Origin: Candidatus Bathyarchaeia archaeon
GTDB lineage: Archaea; Thermoproteota; Bathyarchaeia; Bathyarchaeales; Bathycorpusculaceae
Assembly: GCA_038883795.1 (NCBI GenBank)
Contig: JAVZLK010000046.1
Location: 1-10,454 of the forward strand
DNA: 10,454 bases
Direction of reading: 5' to 3'
Position numbers and translations under genes: made by a program. Shown here piece by piece: positions 1-9,757 of this stretch (within the stretch, counting starts at the first letter, position 1; every line of letters starts with the position of its first letter). Under the pieces are notes generated by a model. It made no database searches, was not told the origin of the DNA, and was given only the letters and a program-made list of their open reading frames with translations.

Positions 1-1
1 T

Positions 2-229
2 GCAAACGCCGGATTAAGAGGCGGAACAAAACTGGTTCTAATAGCTGGACAATATGTAACCATCGGCGGCGACATAATAATAGCCATAAACGGAACAAAA
101 ATAATAGGAATAGACACACTTTCAACTTACCTTGAAGAAAACACCCTCCCAGGACAAACAGTAAACGTGACAATAATGAGAGAAAACCAAATAATAGATG
201 TTGCTATAATACTAGGAGCCCGGCCGTAA
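2..229 (+). CDS. C-terminal PDZ domain of an HtrA/DegP-family (trypsin-like S1C) serine protease, 5'-truncated by the window
   Basis: Frame 2 reads ANAGLRGGTKLVLIAGQYVTIGGDIIIAINGTKIIGIDTLSTYLEENTLPGQTVNVTIMRENQIIDVAIILGARP*. It has the AGL..G, GGDII.AI.G, PGQTV.VTI.R and LG.RP hallmarks of HtrA PDZ tails. TAA is at 227-229. Confidence 0.88.
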   Translation, partial: ANAGLRGGTKLVLIAGQYVTIGGDIIIAINGTKIIGIDTLSTYLEENTLPGQTVNVTIMRENQIIDVAIILGARP

Positions 230-252
230 TCATATCGTCTTAAACTTAGAAA

Positions 253-270
253 TGGACCAGCCGAAGATTC
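253..270 (-). other. tRNA 3'-end-like fragment (possible att remnant)
   Basis: Minus strand reads GAATCTTCGGCTGGTCCA followed by TTTC. This resembles a T-loop end, T-stem, acceptor strand CTGGTCC and discriminator A, as in archaeal tRNA-Ala-like ends, with one extra base. No 5' half is present. Confidence 0.4.
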
Positions 271-353
271 TTGTTCCTAAACTCACCTTTCGCGCTCGTC
301 TGTTAATAACGTGTAACCGAACGGTAACTCCGCTACTGAGGCTAATTTGTGGA

Positions 354-746
354 TTAAATGATTTTTGAGAATATTTCAACGATTTTCTCTTTTTCTTTGT
401 AGATTTCGGCTTCTCTCGCCTTTATTAAAATGTTTAGGAGGTTGACTAGCGGCTTCACTATCCTGGATGTTATCAGGTAGTCTACAAGTTCGTGTTTGAG
501 GGTTTGTATGGCTTTTCCCTCGTCTGCTTCGTAAATGTATATGGAGCCATCTTTGACTTCGCCGGATAGGCTGGCTTTTTTGTCGGGTATCCAGACAACT
601 TTAAGGCTGGAGTTTAAGCCTAAAACTTCTTTTAAACGTTGGAGTTCAGCCTCCAGCCTCTCCTCAACTGCATGTTTATGGCTTGCGCTCGTTAAATTAT
701 GGTTGCGCTTTGTATACCTGCGCTGACATTGTTGTTTCTTGTTCAT
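354..746 (-). CDS. Small zincin-like protein with a variant HExxD motif
   Basis: SLSGEVKDGSIYIY strand segment followed by AIQTLKHELVDYLI, which has zincin architecture with Asp in place of the second His. The C-terminus is helical. It is the last gene of the minus-strand operon. Confidence 0.6.
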   Translation of the reverse strand: MNKKQQCQRRYTKRNHNLTSASHKHAVEERLEAELQRLKEVLGLNSSLKVVWIPDKKASLSGEVKDGSIYIYEADEGKAIQTLKHELVDYLITSRIVKPLVNLLNILIKAREAEIYKEKEKIVEIFSKII

Positions 747-770
747 TTTTCAACGCCTTTTGATTGAGAC

Positions 771-956
771 CTACGTTTTAACCAGAACCCAGCGTCCCTG
801 TTCCTTTGAAAGCAGCAGGTTGCCTATTCCGCTGTGCAGGCTTTGCCAAAAGTCAACCAAGACGCCAGTAACGGGCTCTACATAGGTGTCCACGATTACA
901 TGGTTGCCAATGAAACATTCAAGGATACTCCTACTTTTTCCCTGTTTCCGCTTCAT
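771..956 (-). CDS. Sm/LSm-like (Hfq-type fold) small protein; probably extends past the amber codon to TGA at 750-752
   Basis: LECFIGNHVIVDT...VTGVLVDF...GNLLL fits the Sm1 pattern (L...G..V.V....G.L..F....NL.L). GRWVLVKT*VSIKRR* fits an Sm2-like strand pair that is cut by TAG at 771-773. Confidence 0.5.
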   Translation of the reverse strand: MKRKQGKSRSILECFIGNHVIVDTYVEPVTGVLVDFWQSLHSGIGNLLLSKEQGRWVLVKT

Positions 957-960
957 AGCT

Positions 961-1455
961 TCATCTATTGGGGTTTATCCATGGAGGCCTCTTCATTAAG
1001 CGGGTGATGCCATTGTAGGGTCCTTTCAGACTTAGGCCTTTTTTGCGGCAGTATTCTTCATAGGCCTTTTGGGCTAAGTTGTCAGCCTCATTCTGCCAAC
1101 GCGGAATGAGGGCGAAGCTTAGTATGGAAAAGTGACTTGCCAGCTTTAAGGTCCACTTATATTCCCTGTAATACCATGTTTGTGGGCTGGCTTTTTGAAG
1201 GCCGAGCATTTCATAATAAATTAAAGGGTTGTCAGTTTTAATGGCGATAGGCTCTTTTTCGCGAAAGCTTGCCATTAGCCATCTTAAAGCTTGCCGCAAA
1301 CAAAAATATGAAACCTGATTCTGAGTGCACATTTTCTCGTAAACGCCAACCTCTTCCCTAATTTTTTGGGTATTGTCGTAAGCCACGAAGGCGTAAACAC
1401 CAAAATTGTTCGGATTTACGGGTCGAACAATGGCCTTAATATAAACCGTTATCAA
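961..1455 (-). CDS. RNase HI-fold protein (archaeal RNase HI-like), predicted catalytically inactive
   Basis: Motifs align with archaeal RNase HI: VYIKA..RPVNP (vs YFDG..EP.NP), TQNQVSY..L (vs TNNVAEY..L), IKTDNPLI (vs I.GDSQLV) and IPRWQN-EADNLA (vs VPREEN.EAD.L). The first Asp is Lys7 and the Glu is Ser49. The TTG start overlaps the parB TGA. Confidence 0.8.
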   Translation of the reverse strand: MITVYIKAIVRPVNPNNFGVYAFVAYDNTQKIREEVGVYEKMCTQNQVSYFCLRQALRWLMASFREKEPIAIKTDNPLIYYEMLGLQKASPQTWYYREYKWTLKLASHFSILSFALIPRWQNEADNLAQKAYEEYCRKKGLSLKGPYNGITRLMKRPPWINPNR

Positions 1456-2330
1456 GTAGCTCCCTTCTCCCTTCTAATTTTAATTATCTCCTCGATAAGC
1501 CACTGAGCGCAGGCGTGGCAGAGCGAAGCGCTTAAAATTTGACCTCCGCGGACAGTTAGTGGCCTTTGCAATCCACAGATGAAACAGGTAAAGCTTCTCT
1601 CTCCTAAATTTGGTGAAGGTTCTCTCGGCCTAACGTGTTCTGCAAGCTTACCCGTCAGTCGTGCCCTGGCGAGAAACTCTTGCCTGGATATTTCTCCCAA
1701 AGCATATTTGTTGGCAAGCTCAGCTTGATGCTTAGGATCCTTAACCTTAAGCAACATTAATGCAAGCTTAACTGGAAGCCTTTTACGGTAAACGCACTCT
1801 TGGACGTCTGGGTGCAATTTTAAAAGCTGAAGCATACGACTGACATGCGCTTTATCAAGGCCCAATGCATGGGCTATCTCGCGAGTTGACATGCCAAAAT
1901 TTCTCTGAAGCTTCGCGAAGTACTCAGCCTCTTCTATAGGGTTCAAGTTTTTGCGCTGAAAATTTTCTAATCCTCGTAGAATGGCAGCTTGTTTGTCGTT
2001 GATAATATTAAAAACAAGAGCTGGTACCTCTTTCAGTCCAGCCTTTTTAGCGGCCATAAAACGGCGGTATCCGAATACCAACTCATATTTATCGCCTTTA
2101 AGCTTAACGCCTACTGGCTGAATCACTCCATCACGTTTCAAAGTTTTGGTTAGGCCGTCTAACTCAAGCGTCTCCTCGCCTCTGAGAACAGCGTTGGGTG
2201 GCACTATAATATCTGACAATTTCACCGATAGAACTTTAGATGTTGAAAGTGTCTCACCGTGAGACACTTTTTCCGCATTTTGGGCTTCTTTTCGGAAAAG
2301 CGCTTTTTTTCTCGGTTTTCTTTCTTCCAA
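1452..2330 (-). CDS. parB: ParB/RepB/Spo0J-family protein (CTPase domain, HTH, C-terminal C4 zinc ribbon); start uncertain (TTG 2330 or GTG 2267)
   Basis: GVIQPVGV, YELVFGYRRFMAAKKAGLKEVPA (GxRR motif), ENFQRKNLNPIEEA, the HTH STREIAHALGLDKAHVSRMLQLL, and a C-terminal CFIC-x18-CHAC. Confidence 0.92.
   Translation of the reverse strand: MEERKPRKKALFRKEAQNAEKVSHGETLSTSKVLSVKLSDIIVPPNAVLRGEETLELDGLTKTLKRDGVIQPVGVKLKGDKYELVFGYRRFMAAKKAGLKEVPALVFNIINDKQAAILRGLENFQRKNLNPIEEAEYFAKLQRNFGMSTREIAHALGLDKAHVSRMLQLLKLHPDVQECVYRKRLPVKLALMLLKVKDPKHQAELANKYALGEISRQEFLARARLTGKLAEHVRPREPSPNLGERSFTCFICGLQRPLTVRGGQILSASLCHACAQWLIEEIIKIRREKGAT
2246..2270. promoter_or_regulatory. Perfect 25-bp palindrome; parS-like site or candidate ParB operator
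   Basis: AAAGTGTCTCAC-C-GTGAGACACTTT has 12-bp perfect arms and a 1-bp spacer. Its core TGTCTCAC.GTGAGACA resembles bacterial parS TGTTTCACGTGAAACA. The palindrome is certain; its function is inferred. Confidence 0.65.
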
Positions 2331-2639
2331 CCTTAAACCCTCAATTTCTAAGCGTTTTGTAAAGATAGACCAAAATTTTGTTTGATCCGTCGTTTTTGGC
2401 TGGATAGCGAAGCGGAGCTCCGTAGAACCACTTTAGAAACAGCCAATGCCCCAGGGAAGCCTCGCTTTGCCCGTTATGATTTGAAGGGATTATGCATTTA
2501 AAGCGTGGGATAGGCGTTGAGCCTCGGCGGCTTATTCTAAGAATAACTTGGCGCTTCCATCAAGACATAGTGAGCTGACGCCTATGCAAACATTGCCATA
2601 TTTGACGAGCTTTTTCCGTTTCTTTTCGTCGAAAACCAA
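2331..2639 (-). pseudogene. Hypothetical gene interrupted by three in-frame TAA codons, in frame with parB
   Basis: TTG at 2639 directly follows the upstream stop. The frame reads MVFDEKKRKKLVKYGNVCIGVSSLCLDGSAKLFLE*AAEAQRLSHALNA*SLQIITGKARLPWGIGCF*SGSTELRFAIQPKTTDQTKFWSIFTKRLEIEGLR, with stops at 2532-2534, 2490-2492 and 2433-2435. It fills the only large gap in an otherwise tightly packed operon. Confidence 0.5.
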
Positions 2640-2975
2640 TTATAATTTCTCCCAATTTAGAAATCGGCCGTTATTTCGCTCTGTATAGGTAATCCAGCCG
2701 TTTTTCCACTTTTCTATGTTCCAGGAGTGCAATCCGCTACTGCTTTTTTCAGACCAGATTGTTTTTGGCATCTTTTCCAATCTAGCCCTTTGGATTGCCA
2801 TCTTTAGAACTTCCTCACGTAACCATTGAATTATCGCTTCTCTTCCCTTCTGTTGGCCAAATCTTGTCCTTTTGGCTATTCCCTCAATGCTTTCTGGAGT
2901 TTCTTTGGAAAAGTCGATGCCTAAGTTTAGTTCAAGCCATTCCTTTATGCGTGGGTAGCCTGAAACCTTACCCAT
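2640..2975 (-). CDS. Hypothetical protein (111 aa, Trp/Lys-rich)
   Basis: ATG directly follows the upstream TAA within a tight operon. No family recognised. Confidence 0.7.
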   Translation of the reverse strand: MGKVSGYPRIKEWLELNLGIDFSKETPESIEGIAKRTRFGQQKGREAIIQWLREEVLKMAIQRARLEKMPKTIWSEKSSSGLHSWNIEKWKNGWITYTERNNGRFLNWEKL

Positions 2976-3323
2976 TTATATTGCCACGCGCCAAAATCCG
3001 GTGGAAGAATCAAAAATCAAGGCTATTTCATCGCCAATTTGAGGGTAGTGACCGTATTGTAGCCGATAGCGCTGTAAGGAGCTGTTCGGATGGCTACTTA
3101 TGGACATGCACTTTCTAATTTGATAGTTGTCTGGTGTTTGAACGATCAATTGTAAGGCTTTTTGGCTAGCCTTTGCCGGGTTGCGTAGTTTAGCTTCCGG
3201 TATGAACTGGCTTAATGTTCCCAGCTGTATGCTAATGACTTTGCCAAAGGCCTTCTTTTTCCGCAACTTGATCTGCTCTTCCAATTCTTCGTATAATTTT
3301 TCAAGCGTTTTTTCTTCGCTCAT
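2976..3323 (-). CDS. Hypothetical protein, possibly an OB-fold-like nucleic-acid-binding protein
   Basis: Strong GGAGGTGA RBS just upstream. It has an N-terminal charged helix, then beta-strand patterns (GKVISIQLG, ALQLIVQT, PQIGDEIALIFD, GFWRVAI). The ORF is solid; the fold call is tentative. Confidence 0.7.
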   Translation of the reverse strand: MSEEKTLEKLYEELEEQIKLRKKKAFGKVISIQLGTLSQFIPEAKLRNPAKASQKALQLIVQTPDNYQIRKCMSISSHPNSSLQRYRLQYGHYPQIGDEIALIFDSSTGFWRVAI

Positions 3324-3539
3324 CTTTTCACCTCCTTTAAGTTTAATAGGGCTTTTAAGTGGGTGTAAATGGCTTCAAGACTGGCTAGAACTTGTTCAGG
3401 GGGAAGACCTTCAGGGTAGACAAAGACCCCCCTTCAAATTTGGGACAACTTCCAGCTTTGGCCCAAGGGCTTCAAATATTTCTTTCGGAATGTAAGCCAG
3501 CCTTTGTTGGGGGTGCACTTTTATGCGAAACTTAACCAT
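3320..3539 (-). pseudogene. AbrB/SpoVT-like small DNA-binding protein with a 1-nt frameshift in a G6 tract (not in the ORF track)
   Basis: GGAGG RBS and ATG at 3539. It reads MVKFRIKVHPQQRLAYIPKEIFEALGPKLEVVPNLKG, then G6 (3427-3432) leads to TGA at 3411-3413. With G5 it continues VFVYPEGLPPEQVLASLEAIYTHLKALLNLKEVKR* (72 aa), ending in an ATGA overlap with the 3323 start. Confidence 0.72.
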
Positions 3540-3605
3540 TTCTTAGTTCCTCCTTAGAAATTTTTAAGAGCTTGTGCTGGTACCATCTTTTAAAGGTTGT
3601 CAGCT
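3540..3605. promoter_or_regulatory. Divergent promoter region of the element
   Basis: Lies between divergent genes. It has a near-symmetric TATA-like TTTTAAA at 3588-3594 and a TGGTACCA palindrome at 3578-3585. Confidence 0.4.
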
Positions 3606-4081
3606 TGCGAAGAAAGCGCGAGTTAGGCTACTTGTATCAGCTTATTTTTAAAGGGGATAATCGTTTAGATATTGAGGATGAATGTGCTAAGTTCAAAAGG
3701 CTTGGTTTTTTCGCAGAAATTGTAGAAAACCCCCAAGGCGGAAGTCATTTAAAAGTAATCGTTGGAGCATGGCTTTTACAGATTTACGGCACGGGAACCG
3801 CAAATGTTTTCGTTATGGATAAAGTGGACGCGTATAAAGTTTGGCGTTTTCTAATTGGTTTGGGTTATAATTTAAATTTGGAGAAAGTTATGCCAACTCG
3901 GACGCAACTTTGGTACGTGTATGATGGTTCAGATGATGGTAAAAGTTCAAAGGAATATCCAAAATGTTTTAAGATAGTAAGGGCTTTAGAGGTTATAGTA
4001 CTGAAATCTTTATATCAAGTTGCTCGAATTGCCGATATAAACATGACTTGTACCAGTAATTCTCTCTCGCGGAAGGCTTAA
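3572..4081 (+). CDS. Hypothetical protein with a possible TBP-like half-domain; true start may be TTG 3606
   Basis: 169-codon ORF. The segment LKVIVGAWLLQIYGTGTANVFVMDKVDAYKVWRFL resembles the TBP-superfamily pattern (LIF.SGK.V...helix). Confidence 0.5.
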   Translation: MCWYHLLKVVSLRRKRELGYLYQLIFKGDNRLDIEDECAKFKRLGFFAEIVENPQGGSHLKVIVGAWLLQIYGTGTANVFVMDKVDAYKVWRFLIGLGYNLNLEKVMPTRTQLWYVYDGSDDGKSSKEYPKCFKIVRALEVIVLKSLYQVARIADINMTCTSNSLSRKA

Positions 4082-4113
4082 ATTTTGTGGTGTTTTTGGT
4101 TTTTTGGGCAAAA

Positions 4114-4452
4114 ATGGCTCTGCAACGGAAAAGGGGTAGGCCTCGTGGCCCATCCTATCTAACGATGCTTCGTTTTAGGGTTCTTAAGCGCGTGCTTTTG
4201 GAGTCGCCGAAATGGCCCTTTATTCGCCCCTGCTTAGAGGCACTAGACCTGCCTGAGAGGACCTATCACAGACACGCGCGAAATTTGCTTTGGGGCGATC
4301 CGGAATTTGTCGGCCGTCTAGCATCGAGGTATTTGTCTCGTCTTTCTGTGCCACTTTCTTTCGAGCCTGTTAAAAACGAAGGTGGAAGCCTTGACCGAGT
4401 CAAGCGTCTAGCCAAACTTTTGAGGGAGTTGCAGGAGCGAGCTTACAGTTAA
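4114..4452 (+). CDS. AT-hook plus HTH DNA-binding protein (terminase-small-subunit-like layout)
   Basis: ATG 4114 is in frame with the listed ORF (4087..4452). It has an RKRGRPRG AT-hook-like motif and the HTH-like CLEALDLPERTYHRH...DPEF. Confidence 0.55.
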   Translation: MALQRKRGRPRGPSYLTMLRFRVLKRVLLESPKWPFIRPCLEALDLPERTYHRHARNLLWGDPEFVGRLASRYLSRLSVPLSFEPVKNEGGSLDRVKRLAKLLRELQERAYS

Positions 4453-4521
4453 TTGTAGGACCTGTAACGCTTTGAGTCTAAAACCACCTGCCCTTCAATC
4501 ATGGACATTGAAAACTGTTTC

Positions 4522-4548
4522 GGCAAAAATGCCAAAAATGCCATAAAT
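4522..4548 (+). repeat. Three imperfect 9-bp tandem repeats
   Basis: GGCAAAAAT GCCAAAAAT GCCATAAAT. GGCAAAAATG also occurs at 4107-4116, and related inverted units (TTTTTGG) occur at 4083-4107. Confidence 0.55.
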
Positions 4549-4604
4549 CCCTTTTCCGACAGAGCTCCTCCTCCCATATATTTTTGCACACACACAACTA
4601 GCCT

Positions 4605-5432
4605 TTATAACAGGCTAGTTAACGATCTAACTACTTGGTAGGCTATTAGCCAACAGCCCAGTCGCTTATTAGTTGTGTGTGTGCCTATTCTAAATTTAGA
4701 ACTTTTTCTTTGTTTATCTATCAGACGGAGGATTGCTCCGAGGGCAGTGTTTAGACCGAAAAAGATTCCGATGGGTATGATTGGGATGAGAAATTCGTAT
4801 GCATATGAAATTCGCATGCCAAGTATGGTTAGACCATAAGGCGTCTCGTCAAAAATCATTATAATTGCGATCACCCCCAAAATTAGACTGCACACAACTA
4901 TCGCAAGCCCTTTAACTACTTCTATTTTCCAGATAACCTTTAAAGAGGTTAGCATTCCAACAAACAGCAAAACTATCCCGATAGTGATACCGGCCATATC
5001 TACATAAACAAACCATTCTGGAATACCCTCTTTTGTATAGCAATAATAAATCATTTCCTTCCACGCCCACTGCCTATAAGCTTCTAAATCATCAACGTAA
5101 TCAGACCTTTCTGGATACTGCCAAAGACCCCAAGTAATTGCAAATCCAACGCCTCTTAATGCTATATAGAATCCAAGAATAACTAGGAGACAGCTGAGAA
5201 TTAGGCTGACTATCCTCCATTTTTCGGCCTTCAAACACATTCGCTTACATAACAGGTACAAGAGAGTTACGAATATCCCCAGCGAAAATAAAACGGTTAA
5301 AACGGGATTTGCATGTGACAATGCTAAGATATATGGAGACAAAAACACTATTGCAAAAGCCAATACGTGAAATAAAACAACTCTAACGTTCATATAAGAA
5401 CTGCCCTTATCACAATTTTTCCCTTGCACCAA
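4605..5432 (-). CDS. Multi-pass membrane protein of unknown function (about 6 TM); likely start ATG 5393
   Basis: Several long hydrophobic segments with one polar aromatic loop (WQYPERSDYVDDLEAYRQWAWKEM) and a basic tail. Confidence 0.8.
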   Translation of the reverse strand: MVQGKNCDKGSSYMNVRVVLFHVLAFAIVFLSPYILALSHANPVLTVLFSLGIFVTLLYLLCKRMCLKAEKWRIVSLILSCLLVILGFYIALRGVGFAITWGLWQYPERSDYVDDLEAYRQWAWKEMIYYCYTKEGIPEWFVYVDMAGITIGIVLLFVGMLTSLKVIWKIEVVKGLAIVVCSLILGVIAIIMIFDETPYGLTILGMRISYAYEFLIPIIPIGIFFGLNTALGAILRLIDKQRKSSKFRIGTHTTNKRLGCWLIAYQVVRSLTSLL

Positions 5433-5448
5433 CTAAGCTTCTTTGACC

Positions 5449-7914
5449 CTATTTAGGACGTTCTGATCCCATGTGCTTAAGAATTATTGCAATAAGAGTA
5501 GTCAATATCAGTAGAGACAGCAAAGTTACGTGCGGAAACTCTGGTATTACTTCCACCGAATATGCAAGTGTTTCAAAATCTTGTAAGAAATAGGCTTGCA
5601 ACTCGATAATTTCGCCCATGTGGCTCGTCCAATCTAAGTCAAACCTAAATGTCATGGTGGAGTTTGGCATTATGCCTACCGACGGGTAATACCTTTCGAT
5701 AATTGTTCCATTAGCAAGTTTACATGTTATTTTTGTAACATTTATGTAGACATCTGATTCTGGGAAATTGCGTATTGTCACGTTGAAGTAGTCCGGGTGT
5801 TCTTCATAAAAGTCCACGCTTTGGATTAATGCAAATGCAACCTCCAACTCGACAGTCTCTCTGAATATATATCCCTGCTCTGTATCTACATAGATCACCG
5901 TTTTAACAACGCCATGCCAACTTCCATTAAACCTGAAATAGATAGAATTGTTAGGCTGAAGGCTTACCGGAACCGCTCGTATATCTGGATCCATATCTAC
6001 AATGTCTATGCCAGCCACTAGAATATCCCTAATTGTAAGGTTTACCTCTGACCAAGGATCATTCGTTATTGTTATATTAAACCTCCTGAAGGAAACTTTG
6101 GCGTTAAATTCCGGGGTTATATAAAGCTTAACATACGGCAATTTCGCCTCTTTACTTACTGTCGGAAACTCTTGAAAGAATACGTGGACAATAATAGTTT
6201 CTCCAGGGAATTTGCTGGCAATTTCTCCCCATGAAAAGTGAACTTCATCCTTACGAAATCGCCCACATGTGATATTCACGGACTCTCCTCTCGGAATTAA
6301 AATCCCATTTTCAATTGGAGGTTCCGTTTCCACAGCCTCGTAAATTTCTTCCCCACCCTTAAAGCCGACCCTAATTCTTGTAATTACCGCGTCTAACGGC
6401 GAATATTCAGGATTAAAAACTTCAATTTTTAAAGTTTTGACATTTTCCTTATCGATACGAATTTTGACTATTGAGGGGCCAACAGCCCATGGAGCCATTA
6501 ATGGATATCTGTCAACGTTGTTATCGTCAATATTGTATGGGACGTCGCTGATGCCATCACTGCCGGTAGTATTCTGATAAGGTCCACTGTACAAGTCAAC
6601 GCCTGTATAGTCGCTCCAAAAGTTTCCCCCTGAAGGGTAGCCATCATCCCAAATATTTATCGACGGAGAAATAACCAGTTCGTCCCATGATAAATCATAA
6701 ACTTGTCTGGTATTGTTTATGAAGTTATTGTGATAGATTTTGTTTTGAGACGACATTGCAAACCATGTGCCGTTTCCGTTGTTTTCTATTCGGTTTTCAG
6801 ATACCATGTTGCAGGCGGAAGCTTCAAAGTGTATGCCGCAATTAACATTTTCTTTTATGATATTTCTTGAAATAGTGTTGCCATGTGAGCCGAGAAGGTA
6901 AATGCCGTTCTCGTTATCTTCCAAAAGGTTCCCAATTAAAGTGCTGTTTGATGATCTGTTCACTTCAATGCCGCTTTGTTCGTTTGCTTTTATGATGTTC
7001 TTCGAGATGTCATTGTAATGTGAGGAGTCAGATATCAAAATTCCATAAGTATTATCTGTTATGTTGTTTAAAACTACACTGTTGTTATTGCTTGAATAAT
7101 AAAAAAGTATGCCCTCACCGTTGTTTGTAAGTTGGTTCTCCGCTATGATGTTGTTTGATGATTCAAAGAAGCGTATAACGTTTGAATGTGAATGAGTTAT
7201 CTCGTTTTTTAAAATGGCATTGTTAGAAGAATTATAGAAGTATATACCTTCTTTATTCCCTCGTAATTTGTTTTGAGAGATTATATTAAAAGCGGAATCT
7301 TGAAGGTATATTCCGCAGGGCATCCACCATTCAACGTGCTCTGCTATAACATTTCCAGAAATGGTGTTATTCCATGAGCCCCAGAGCCCAACACCATGCT
7401 CGTTTCTTGTTATGTTAATTCCAGAAATTAAATTGTGGCTTGAATATAGAAGCGCAACACCATTAGTGTTGTTTCTTATGCAACCACTTCCGAGCAACTT
7501 GCAACTAAAAGATCGATTAAGGAAGATACCAACGTAGAAACCTTCAACGTTTATATTTTTAACTGTCACATTGCCAACATTTGAAAGCAATATCCCCTTA
7601 CTTTTAGGCGTTCCCAACCCGTGAACGGTATAGCCTAGACCTTCAAATGTTATATTACTCCTTTCAACAATAATTCCATCAGCATTGCTAACGATATTAT
7701 CCACTAAAATGTAAGTAATATTCTTATAAGTCACTATAGGAGCGTCTGGGGGATCTATTGTACCATCCGCCCTGATATAAACAGTCCCAATCCAGCTTCC
7801 ATAGGCCTTCTTCAGGCTTATGCTATGCCAAATAGGCAACGCTACAGATATAGCTAATAACATAAGAACAAAAATTGATAATAATGATGGTGAGCCTTCT
7901 AAAGCCTTCTTCAT
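5449..7914 (-). CDS. Cell-surface glycoprotein: signal/TM, NosD-type right-handed parallel beta-helix, three beta-rich repeats, PEF-CTERM anchor
   Basis: Has ~22-aa GIxLxxSxNNxIxxNxIxxN repeats and the cap motif YHNNFINN...WDDGYPSGGNFWSDYTGVD...DRYPLMAP. The C-terminus is VIPEFP, a TM helix and a basic tail. Many N-x-S/T sequons. Confidence 0.9.
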   Translation of the reverse strand: MKKALEGSPSLLSIFVLMLLAISVALPIWHSISLKKAYGSWIGTVYIRADGTIDPPDAPIVTYKNITYILVDNIVSNADGIIVERSNITFEGLGYTVHGLGTPKSKGILLSNVGNVTVKNINVEGFYVGIFLNRSFSCKLLGSGCIRNNTNGVALLYSSHNLISGINITRNEHGVGLWGSWNNTISGNVIAEHVEWWMPCGIYLQDSAFNIISQNKLRGNKEGIYFYNSSNNAILKNEITHSHSNVIRFFESSNNIIAENQLTNNGEGILFYYSSNNNSVVLNNITDNTYGILISDSSHYNDISKNIIKANEQSGIEVNRSSNSTLIGNLLEDNENGIYLLGSHGNTISRNIIKENVNCGIHFEASACNMVSENRIENNGNGTWFAMSSQNKIYHNNFINNTRQVYDLSWDELVISPSINIWDDGYPSGGNFWSDYTGVDLYSGPYQNTTGSDGISDVPYNIDDNNVDRYPLMAPWAVGPSIVKIRIDKENVKTLKIEVFNPEYSPLDAVITRIRVGFKGGEEIYEAVETEPPIENGILIPRGESVNITCGRFRKDEVHFSWGEIASKFPGETIIVHVFFQEFPTVSKEAKLPYVKLYITPEFNAKVSFRRFNITITNDPWSEVNLTIRDILVAGIDIVDMDPDIRAVPVSLQPNNSIYFRFNGSWHGVVKTVIYVDTEQGYIFRETVELEVAFALIQSVDFYEEHPDYFNVTIRNFPESDVYINVTKITCKLANGTIIERYYPSVGIMPNSTMTFRFDLDWTSHMGEIIELQAYFLQDFETLAYSVEVIPEFPHVTLLSLLILTTLIAIILKHMGSERPK

Positions 7915-7922
7915 CTCATGAT

Positions 7923-8740
7923 TTACCTCGTTTTTATTAAAATAAATGTTGCTACAAAGGCAATAATCAACACTATCAGAAGGAGAGTGTATGAAAGGGG
8001 TTCGATGTTCACGTCTTTTGGTTGTGGTGAGGGTGAGGGGGTTGGCGTCGGAGGTGTGGAGTTGCTTATTTGCTGCATGGTTATGTTTACCTGCGACATT
8101 TTATCCTGTTGCACAGTAGCCGTAATTGATGCTGTTTGAAAGTTAGCTTTTGAGGAGACTATCGTGTATTGCCCAGGCGCTAGATCTGAAAATGTTATTT
8201 GCCCTGTAGAGTCCGTGTAGCCACCCCGTGACTCCGGTCCAGAAATGCTTACGTATGCAGCGTTAACTGCACTTCCATATGTATCCTTTACAATGATTCT
8301 TAAACTTCCAGCTATCCTTTCCCGCCATATCAGCTTTTCAGTCCAAGAATATAAGCGGGCCGCACTTCCCGCAAAGCCCATAACAACTACATAAAAATTA
8401 TCTGAAAATCGAACAACGAACTGGACACATCCGGATTGAGCTGTCTTCATAACCCTGTAGCTGGATGGCCCGCCATATCTTGGCCAATTTCTCCAGTCAA
8501 CCTCGTTAAGTATATAAACGATACAAGGCGATCTGCAGTCCATTCAACATAAATGGTCTTGTCAGATTCAACATAATAGGGTCCGGAGTAACGGTAACCC
8601 ATAAATCCGATGTCCAAATTTTGCCCCGAAAAGAGTATTTGCTCCTTGTTTATGATTTGAGCCGCGTTTACGTATACAATATTATTTAAGTATAGGGCGA
8701 AAATAAAAATGAGAGTAATTATAGAAGCTTTATGACTCAT
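7923..8740 (-). pseudogene. Secreted, membrane-anchored protein (signal peptide, beta-sandwich domain, carboxypeptidase-regulatory-like domain, Pro/Thr linker, C-terminal TM), split by a 1-nt frameshift near 8520
   Basis: ORF 8447..8740 supplies the signal peptide and ...IYVEWTADRLV. ORF 7923..8543 supplies VYILNEVDW...TDSTGQITFSDLAPGQYTIVSSKANFQT...PTPTPSPSP-TM. The span is 818 nt, one short of a multiple of 3. An AGGAGG RBS precedes 8740 only. Confidence 0.8.
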
Positions 8741-9250: not shown

Positions 9251-9757
9251 TTGAGGGAATTGGAAGTAAAAGATCAACGGTCAATGTTACAGCGGCAATA
9301 CTACACGTATATCAAAGAACCAAAAAGCATCGACCAATTACCGAAAATTAGTATAAGGGGGGACAATCTACCTAAAAATCAACTGCGTAAAGTAGTCAAA
9401 AAATAGCTTAAGAGGCTTAAGTTAGAAAAGTACTTGGTTATCATTGAGGAAGTACCAGCATGGGACTATAACGCTGACGACGTGGAGTCACATACATATG
9501 CAAAACTTTGGGTTATAGATGAAAATGGAGAGAGGGTTGAAACTCAAGGCCCTATAGTTCAACTTGACGCGAAAAGGGTGAAGGCAGGGGACTTTGTTTT
9601 AATCTATATCATGTTCTACCTGCTCAATTGGAAAACTATGTCTTTAAGAGAATGTGAGGAAAACGTGTTACATGAACTGTTACACGTTAAATACCCTGAT
9701 AAAAATGAAAACTGGATAAGGAAAAAGACAAGCGAACTTCTTAAAAGGTCATCCTAA
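9251..9757 (+). pseudogene. HExxH zincin-like metallopeptidase-family gene with an in-frame TAG at 9404-9406 (listed ORF 9434..9757 is the downstream part)
   Basis: The frame is open from TTG 9251: ...NQLRKVVKK*LKRLKLEKYLVIIEEVPAW...EENVLHELLHVKYP. Trp (TGG) fits the context at the stop. Confidence 0.6.

Follow-up and report, generated by a model that had tools for sequence, protein, structure and literature searches.

The window, as the stretch of DNA analysed here is called, is an entire contig of 10,454 bp (C46) from a 2.18-Mb, 87%-complete genome of the Bathyarchaeia (assembly GCA_038883795.1). One of its strands carries a string of small genes encoding, in order, proteins of 115 and 111 residues, a ParB-like protein, a homolog of type-1 ribonuclease H (RNase HI), and proteins of 61 and 130 residues (Table 1). 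The RNase HI-like protein is the subject of this analysis. It lacks the first Asp and the Glu of the catalytic tetrad, and the whole explanation preferred here, to which a probability of about 0.6 is assigned, is that of a pseudo-RNase HI in which catalysis was lost once and which was kept by selection as a non-cutting binder for the element that carries it. Contig C18 of the host genome encodes an RNase HII; a further type-1 RNase H was not found in this genome at its 87% completeness.

Table 1. Features of the window (aa, amino acids; ORF, open reading frame; HTH, helix-turn-helix)
Feature	Position	Strand	Remarks
Putative pseudo-RNase HI ORF	961..1455	-	164 aa; RNase HI fold; tetrad K7-S49-D75-D125
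Codon 7, AAG (Lys)	1435..1437	-	First catalytic Asp position; read from the sequence
Codon 49, TCA (Ser)	1309..1311	-	Catalytic Glu position; read from the sequence
Codon 75, GAC (Asp)	1231..1233	-	Second catalytic Asp; retained, clade-invariant
Codon 125, GAC (Asp)	1081..1083	-	Last catalytic Asp, NEAD motif; clade-invariant
C-terminal tail	964..1035	-	Residues 141-164
TTGA	1452..1455	-	Overlap of the parB-like TGA stop with the RNase HI-like TTG start
GGGAG	1460..1464	-	Shine-Dalgarno-like, 4 nt upstream of TTG; sequence read, function presumed
ParB-like ORF	1452..2330	-	292 aa; ParB N-terminal domain and HTH, C-terminal CxxC...CxxC
61-aa ORF	771..956	-	Starts 4 nt past the RNase HI-like stop; conserved downstream neighbor; fold uncertain
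130-aa ORF	354..746	-	Same gene string; 71% identical to the counterpart in L054
NosD/right-handed beta-helix protein	5449-7914	-	821 aa; PF05048, E 2e-50
CarboxypepD_reg-domain protein	7923-8543	-

The gene, its fold and its active site

The reading frame of the RNase HI-like gene is unbroken. Its TTG start occupies positions 1455–1453 and the TGA stop of the preceding parB-like gene positions 1454–1452, and this start is supported because the homologs open with the same N-terminal residues, MITVY.

The NCBIfam family NF041175 (RNAseHI_Thmprot) matches residues 1–139 of the protein with an E-value of 2e-14 and a score of 53.7 bits, below the family cut-off of 140. The score for Pfam RVT_3 is likewise sub-threshold (13.6 bits against 21.6), and precomputed matches to PF13456 are present for three relatives described below, P0002, P0004 and P0153. 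A phmmer search of PDB sequences identified RNase HI from Sulfolobus tokodaii (Sto-RNase HI, PDB codes 2EHG and 3ALY; E 4.5e-5), with an alignment that is colinear from residue 1. The AlphaFold2 (AF2) model, for which a 50-sequence alignment (A1) was the input, has a mean predicted local distance difference test score (pLDDT) of 91.1 and a predicted template-modelling score (pTM) of 0.85, and is uncertain only in the tail of residues 141–164. When this model was compared with the PDB by Foldseek, 3ALY ranked first (E 9.8e-11, template-modelling (TM) score 0.88 by target, root-mean-square deviation 1.8 A), followed by RNase H1 from Halobacterium, the RNase H domain of Rv2228c, LC11-RNase H1 and entries of E. 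coli RNase HI. The top matches are type-1 RNases H throughout, and the model contains the five-stranded sheet and helices A–E of that fold. A search of the ESM Atlas with the same protein returned RNase H-like clusters only.

The tetrad was examined in a MAFFT alignment of 152 rows comprising the window protein (P0001) and P0002–P0152. At K7, 130 rows have Asp, 12 have a gap and just 3 have Lys; Glu occupies the S49 column in 140 rows, and Asp is found in 149 rows at D75 and in 139 at D125. The pairwise phmmer alignment, which is ungapped through helix A, pairs Glu52 of Sto-RNase HI with L53 instead of S49, and the multiple alignment together with the motif T-x-N-x-[AV]-x-Y places the Glu position at S49. 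Since residues 41–65 include no Asp or Glu at all, the Glu is absent under either register of helix A. The window protein is therefore an RNase HI homolog without the first Asp and the Glu, and does not carry the DEDD tetrad of type-1 RNases H. It descends from the RNase HI family, but because it fails the tetrad test as well as the curated cut-offs, it is probably not a functional member of that family of enzymes.

These results bear out a first-pass annotation of the locus, made from the DNA letters, which had read the tetrad as K7, S49, D75 and D125 and had proposed an alignment with the S. tokodaii enzyme as a check; homology to that enzyme is clear, with Lys at the position of Asp7 and Ser at that of Glu52. 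The structural motifs it had listed as kept were found in the protein as P12-x-N14-P15, N46...Y50..L53 and IPRWQNEADNLA, where the canonical PRExN reads PRWQN. Its count of at least two substitutions for each change also holds, as two base changes separate AAG from GAT or GAC, and TCA from GAA or GAG.

A clade with lysine at the first aspartate position

Proteins that share the Lys are few. A profile search of 5.8 billion clusters gave five matches at E<=1e-15, which are the window protein itself, P0002, P0004, P0153 and one canonical enzyme, and when 1.84 billion representatives were searched exhaustively, 157 matched at E<=0.001, one alone of them below 1e-30. P0002, from an NCBI metagenome-assembled genome of the Bathyarchaeia, is 60% identical to the window protein and has the tetrad KTDD. 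P0004 (38% identity, KADD) represents 21 member sequences from JGI metagenomes, and P0153 (37% identity, KEDD) is encoded in genome G254 by the ORF at 844-1353 of locus L015. Among the 599 pattern matches listed, at least five metagenome loci (L019–L023) were confirmed, all of the KADD type. No further loci were found in genome contigs with P0001 and P0002 as queries, and none of 92 pattern matches in viral contigs, obtained with alignment A2 as the query, was a relative.

A quick IQ-TREE analysis (LG+C20) was made of 102 rows, leaving out those gapped at any tetrad column, shorter than 125 residues or longer than 200. One branch splits off the four Lys proteins together, with a Shimodaira-Hasegawa-like approximate likelihood ratio (SH-aLRT) support of 98, and within this clade the window protein pairs with P0002 (support 94) and P0004 with the L015 protein (support 86). 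The clade lies nested within the canonical RNase HI of Bathyarchaeia and adjoins the DEDD enzymes L026 (genome G413) and L005 (G031). Lys occupies position 7 in all four intact lineages and also in a decayed gene copy, L054, and the Glu site is S, T, A or E across the clade. On this tree the change from Asp to Lys happened once, in the ancestor of the clade, and at least two losses of the Glu followed, because L015 keeps it and pairs with P0004. Such repeated loss is the pattern that would be expected with catalysis already gone.

In the KADD lineage, a protein that lacks both the first Asp and the Glu is under the same constraint as a true enzyme. The ratio of nonsynonymous to synonymous changes (dN/dS, omega) was calculated with our own Nei-Gojobori script within the KADD lineage, synonymous sites being saturated between lineages of the clade. 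The KADD genes L019, L020 and L023 differ by dS of 0.36–0.52 and dN of 0.04–0.08, giving omega of 0.11–0.16; the constraint equals that on an enzyme since the canonical DEDD pair L026/L027, from two genomes, gives 0.134. The RNase HI fold, a degenerate tetrad and purifying selection, the last taken from the KADD lineage, are thus all found, as in a pseudo-RNase H.

The first-pass annotation had argued for evolved inactivation over recent decay, and this view has gained support from the clade, as the closest homologs, P0002, P0004 and P0153 of L015, share the loss in a single clade under purifying selection, the selection that it had proposed looking for having been detected in the KADD sister lineage. 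The annotation would have been contradicted by close homologs in the same context that retain DEDD; the closest DEDD proteins are at most 36% identical, and the pair from G413 and G412 sits in a flank common to two genomes, so this contradiction did not arise.

The residues K7, D75, N122, A124 and D125 are invariant in the four lineages, and position 119 is R or K. Invariants specific to the clade are W120, which takes the place of the canonical Glu, Y39, W59, Y96, Y99, C136, R137, P146, Y147 and W159. The only other invariant acid is E34, which is also the family consensus, and there are no new conserved acidic residues. The whole clade keeps L143, P146, Y147, W159 and R164 in the tail, and 21 of the 24 residues of 141–164 are identical in P0002 despite the low confidence of the model there. 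Identity between P0001 and P0002 is uneven, 49% over residues 1–117 and 87% over residues 118–164, which suggests either a recombination joint within the gene or far tighter constraint on its final helix and tail. A contig of sequencing run X3, described below, reaches 80% or more in this same C-terminal third (window 964–1104). All four clade proteins are strongly basic, with isoelectric points (pI) of 9.6–9.95.

Degenerate tetrads of other kinds occur among the representatives, namely HASA, DSDE, GRDN, STDN, SGDR and ERCY in P0083, P0090, P0113, P0118, P0139 and P0152. Loss of catalysis in archaeal-type RNase HI homologs thus seems, from these alignments, to be recurrent and independent.

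Neighboring genes and mobile-element character

The 61-residue ORF is the only neighbor common to all lineages. Its homologs follow the RNase HI-like gene in L015, L017, L019 and L021, as identified by tblastn, and in L020 and L023, as identified in alignment A3 (32–33% identity), and the contig of L022 ends at the RNase HI-like gene, before the position of the small ORF. An AF2 model from a 5-row alignment reached a pLDDT of 55.8 and shows one helix and four strands. The impression of an Sm-like barrel was set aside, the model being too uncertain for a fold search, and the ESM Atlas gave no usable match by features and structure matches only on this poor model. Prediction of a complex between the RNase HI-like and 61-residue proteins scored 0.00 against a mark of 0.32, which is evidence neither way.

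The ParB-like protein matches PF02195 (E 2.5e-13) and PF17762 (E 3.1e-18), and its score of 114.8 bits for TIGR00180, against a cut-off of 58.45, places its domain in the ParB family. The CxxC...CxxC end resembles a zinc ribbon. None of the window ORFs scanned against the family libraries matched a ParA-like family, and parS sites were not searched for; as there is no ParA gene in the window, the protein may be a DNA-binding regulator rather than a component of a ParABS system. The translational coupling of the RNase HI-like gene to parB claimed in the first-pass annotation stands for the window, where start and stop overlap, and fails as a conserved linkage in other lineages. No match to the window ParB was found by tblastn in L015, L017 or L019–L023, an unrelated ORF of 157–161 residues lies upstream of the RNase HI-like gene in all six KADD/KEDD loci listed (L015 and L019–L023), and no parB was detected in the decayed element L054, which has P-loop-like ORF fragments where the window has parB. 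The coupling is specific to the window element and lies outside the conserved unit.

In the KEDD and KADD loci the order is a Zn-ribbon protein, an ORF of ~180–200 residues, the 157–161-residue ORF, the RNase HI-like gene, the small ORF and HTH proteins. L015 (contig C5 of G254, 1-6187) also encodes Cas1 at 3905-4984 on the plus strand (PF01867, E 5e-46), and a Cas1-like N-terminus is found on L021 (1-662, minus strand). On the small KEDD and KADD contigs Cas1 is accompanied by ribbon-helix-helix, winged helix-turn-helix and Zn-ribbon proteins. The 6.2 kb of L015 showed neither a CRISPR array nor a polymerase. These contigs may represent a small Cas1-bearing mobile element of Bathyarchaeia.

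A near-identical KEDD copy of the gene at L015:844-1353 is present in L017 (contig C122 of G187, ~6492-6934), in a genome of a different family within the same order, which is consistent with mobile-element behavior, recent horizontal movement or mis-binning. L054, a 5,774-bp contig (C27 of G433, 1-5774), represents a decayed sister to the element in the window. Its blocks are 77–80% identical in nucleotide sequence to the window and cover ORFs 354-746 and 2640-2975 and the beta-helix protein, and its RNase HI-like gene, although broken, still encodes K at position 7 and has T at the Glu site. The beta-helix protein travels with the element, as its counterpart in L054 is 71% identical. In run X3, a contig of 7,034 nt matches window positions 573-880, 952-1104 and 2354-2942, and 1,327 unlike letters replace positions 1105-2353, that is, the N-terminal two-thirds of the gene together with parB.

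The sequencing runs that contain the window stretch are labelled hot-spring metagenomes, and the best-matching one may be the source sample of the window; there were no RNA runs among those listed. The C-terminal half of ORF 354-746 (window 386-605) was found on many separate contigs with high summed depth in each of four hot-spring runs compared, far above its neighbors, and looks like a widespread or multi-copy module.

Within the window there are no tRNA at the element borders, no convincing flanking direct repeats and no compositional break. Of four genomes of the same genus, one contains a counterpart of the PDZ-protease fragment at the 5' end (71% identity), with no further synteny, and none contains a counterpart of the membrane ORF at the 3' end. 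Integration of an element with undefined borders is plausible. The Lys clade as a whole is rare and restricted to mobile-element-like DNA of hot-spring Bathyarchaeia.

Pfam, NCBIfam and PHROGs yielded no family for window ORFs 354-746, 2640-2975, 3572-4081 and 4087-4452, and ORF 2976-3323, also without a family, has one weak match (E 0.003), to a functionally uncharacterized PHROG. Pfam and PHROGs were applied to the ORFs of L015, Pfam to those of L019 and L028, and a PDB sequence search to two neighboring ORFs; the 157–161-residue and ~180-residue upstream ORFs of the KADD/KEDD elements matched no family. Primase-like motifs noticed in some neighboring ORFs were unsupported and form no part of the argument. 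The HExxH-like sequence HELLH occurs in ORF 9434-9757 on the plus strand, and HELVD lies at a comparable point in ORF 354-746. Neither ORF matches a family; judging by these motifs, the two may be small metallopeptidase-like paralogs.

Proposed function and alternatives

The sequence and the model make a non-cutting binding protein the most likely role of the window protein. In type-1 RNases H the DEDD carboxylates coordinate two catalytic metals (PMC9719913). The proposal is that a Sulfolobus-type RNase HI fold has been kept and two-metal hydrolysis lost, the metal-bridging Asp having become Lys and the Glu Ser. The ammonium group of Lys7 would fill the metal site, gripped by D75 and D125 in a presumed salt bridge, and the resulting metal-free, charge-neutralized site could allow a phosphate to dock without being cleaved. 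D75 and D125 would be invariant, while the Glu drifts, because they hold the amine of Lys7. The protein, with its pI of 9.6, might then serve the element by binding, without cutting, an RNA/DNA hybrid, double-stranded RNA (dsRNA) or a partner protein, and would be expressed together with the small ORF that follows its gene; one possibility is that it holds an RNA primer or R-loop or shields it from the host RNase HII. Protection of R-loops or primers had also been raised in the first-pass annotation, beside action as a decoy for host RNase H. Mutants of known enzymes show that binding can outlast cleavage, as E109 or D132 mutants of B. halodurans RNase H do not cleave and D132N binds the hybrid better, and the human D210N mutant, though inactive, binds both hybrid and dsRNA (PMC8943300). 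A bolder version, in which the built-in Lys cation makes a metal-independent RNA/DNA hybrid clamp and the elements, some with Cas1, shield primers or R-loops from RNase HII with the help of the adjacent small protein, is a speculative proposal with perhaps one chance in a few of being right.

Several observations weigh against the reading as a selected, non-cutting binder. One frameshift splits the L017 copy, two frame changes and a stop interrupt the one in L054, and since these copies have decayed, the gene appears dispensable once the element degenerates. The small downstream ORF evolves fast (omega 0.45–0.52), the selection figures come from the KADD sister lineage and not from the window gene, and the replication-module context rests on unannotated ORFs without a family match. 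Finally, T44-x-N46 at the N-terminus of helix A, which we take to contain residues of the phosphate-holding site, is found only in the window protein and P0002, with INH in P0004 and YNW in L015. It is at the N-terminus of helix A that type-1 RNases H hold a DNA phosphate (PMC4132731). Because T-x-N is absent from P0004 and L015, the canonical mode of hybrid binding may, by these comparisons, not be conserved across the clade.

The same limitation of T-x-N to the window protein and P0002 makes a protein-binding adaptor or decoy a serious rival, even if an unlikely one on balance. Such a protein would not bind nucleic acid in the RNase H mode; it could instead scaffold the small downstream protein or replication or defence proteins of the host, or inhibit a host factor. 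Variation of the residues of the helix-A N-terminal pocket across the clade fits this role, as do the mostly aromatic clade-specific invariants Y39, W59, Y96, Y99, W120, Y147 and W159, which are typical of interfaces, the conserved C-terminal tail, absent from the nearest enzymes, the high identity of the C-terminal third to P0002 and the constant adjacency of the small ORF. However, the strongly basic character of all members fits nucleic-acid binding, and a pure scaffold would leave the invariant K7, D75 and D125 unexplained.

A nuclease with an altered mechanism is less likely still. Its active site would hold just one metal, such as Mn2+, on D75 and D125, and K7 and R119 would stabilize the transition state instead of the second metal. 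At ~37% identity and omega of ~0.1, the invariance of D75, N122, A124 and D125 with R or K at position 119 is what such an enzyme would need, and so strict a retention of half an active site is unexpected for one that is simply dead. The E48A/D134N variants of E. coli RNase HI reportedly retain Mn2+-dependent activity. PDB entry titles record the co-crystallization of these variants with Mn2+. On the other hand, we know of no RNase H that works without the first Asp. That residue bridges both metals in the two-metal model (PMC9719913), the drift of the Glu site to S, T and A in three lineages argues against its catalytic use, and the clade has gained no conserved acid in compensation, E34 being common to the family.

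The weakest alternative, a copy inactivated on a mobile element and heading for loss with no retained function, could draw on the decayed L017 and L054 genes and on the independently degenerate tetrads of other representatives, but is very improbable and already largely refuted by clade conservation, omega and the tree, given that four intact lineages at 37–60% identity retain the reading frame together with the Lys, both remaining Asp (D75 and D125) and the tail, that omega matches that of a real enzyme pair, and that each substitution needed two base changes.

Comparison with known systems

Sto-RNase HI, the closest characterized relative by structure and a representative of the NF041175 type, shares with the window protein its fold, length and colinearity at 28% identity, as well as the P-x-N-P motif, the D-S/N motif, R119, the N-x-A-D motif and a C-terminal extension past the last helix. 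The window protein differs in having Lys for Asp7, Ser for Glu52 and PRWQN for PREEN, in having one residue fewer, and in being encoded on mobile-element-like DNA. Hybrids and dsRNA are both substrates of Sto-RNase HI (PMC9719913); the window protein is not expected to cleave them.

Proteins of the RNase H fold that are inactive are already known, as modules of retroelements and in one case from B. subtilis. Like the window protein, which is predicted to be inactive too, the B. subtilis RNase HI homolog is a stand-alone prokaryotic type-1 paralog that occurs alongside active RNase H of other types while lacking RNase H activity itself (PMC9719913, citing Chon et al. 2004). It is encoded on a bacterial chromosome, the comparison being one of descriptions and not of sequences, and the part of that article dealing with it describes neither a conserved Lys-for-Asp clade nor a mobile-element context (PMC9719913).

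In the retroviral tether and the Tat gRNH domain, the RNase H fold similarly outlives a degenerate DEDD tetrad as a non-catalytic module of the replication machinery of a mobile element (PMC4408406). Tat gRNH keeps the last Asp only (PMC4408406), whereas the window protein keeps two Asp and a fixed Lys. Both retroelement modules are domains of a Pol polyprotein beside an active RNase H, unlike the window protein, which is free-standing and has no active RNase H encoded adjacent to it.

The engineered dead RNases H, B. halodurans D132N and E109 mutants and human D210N, resemble what is proposed for the window protein in that a change of carboxylate stops cleavage, with hybrid binding kept or improved (PMC8943300). 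By analogy, they could serve as a working model for what the natural K7/S49 protein does. They are laboratory point mutants at other positions of the tetrad, and the window protein is natural and ancient, with a positive charge at the bridging Asp and many further clade-specific changes.

The literature searched, which was covered in part and without supplements, yielded no account of an archaeal RNase HI with such a Lys substitution or of its clade, and the terms "RNase H" and "ParB" are absent from the main text of the Bathyarchaeia virus paper PMC10848311. What is new here is a fixed Lys at the bridging Asp, constraint at the level of an enzyme, the free-standing form, and a rare clade on mobile elements of Bathyarchaeia.

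The clade would amount to an experiment by nature in which a nuclease became a binder. Should its members bind hybrids uncut, protection of R-loops or primers would emerge as a strategy of archaeal mobile elements, and the protein would provide a thermostable, metal-independent scaffold for hybrid binding; were the Lys clamp to prove true as well, nature would have its own version of the engineered D210N and D132N hybrid probes. If no nucleic acid is bound, the clade would be another case of an enzyme fold reused as an adaptor.

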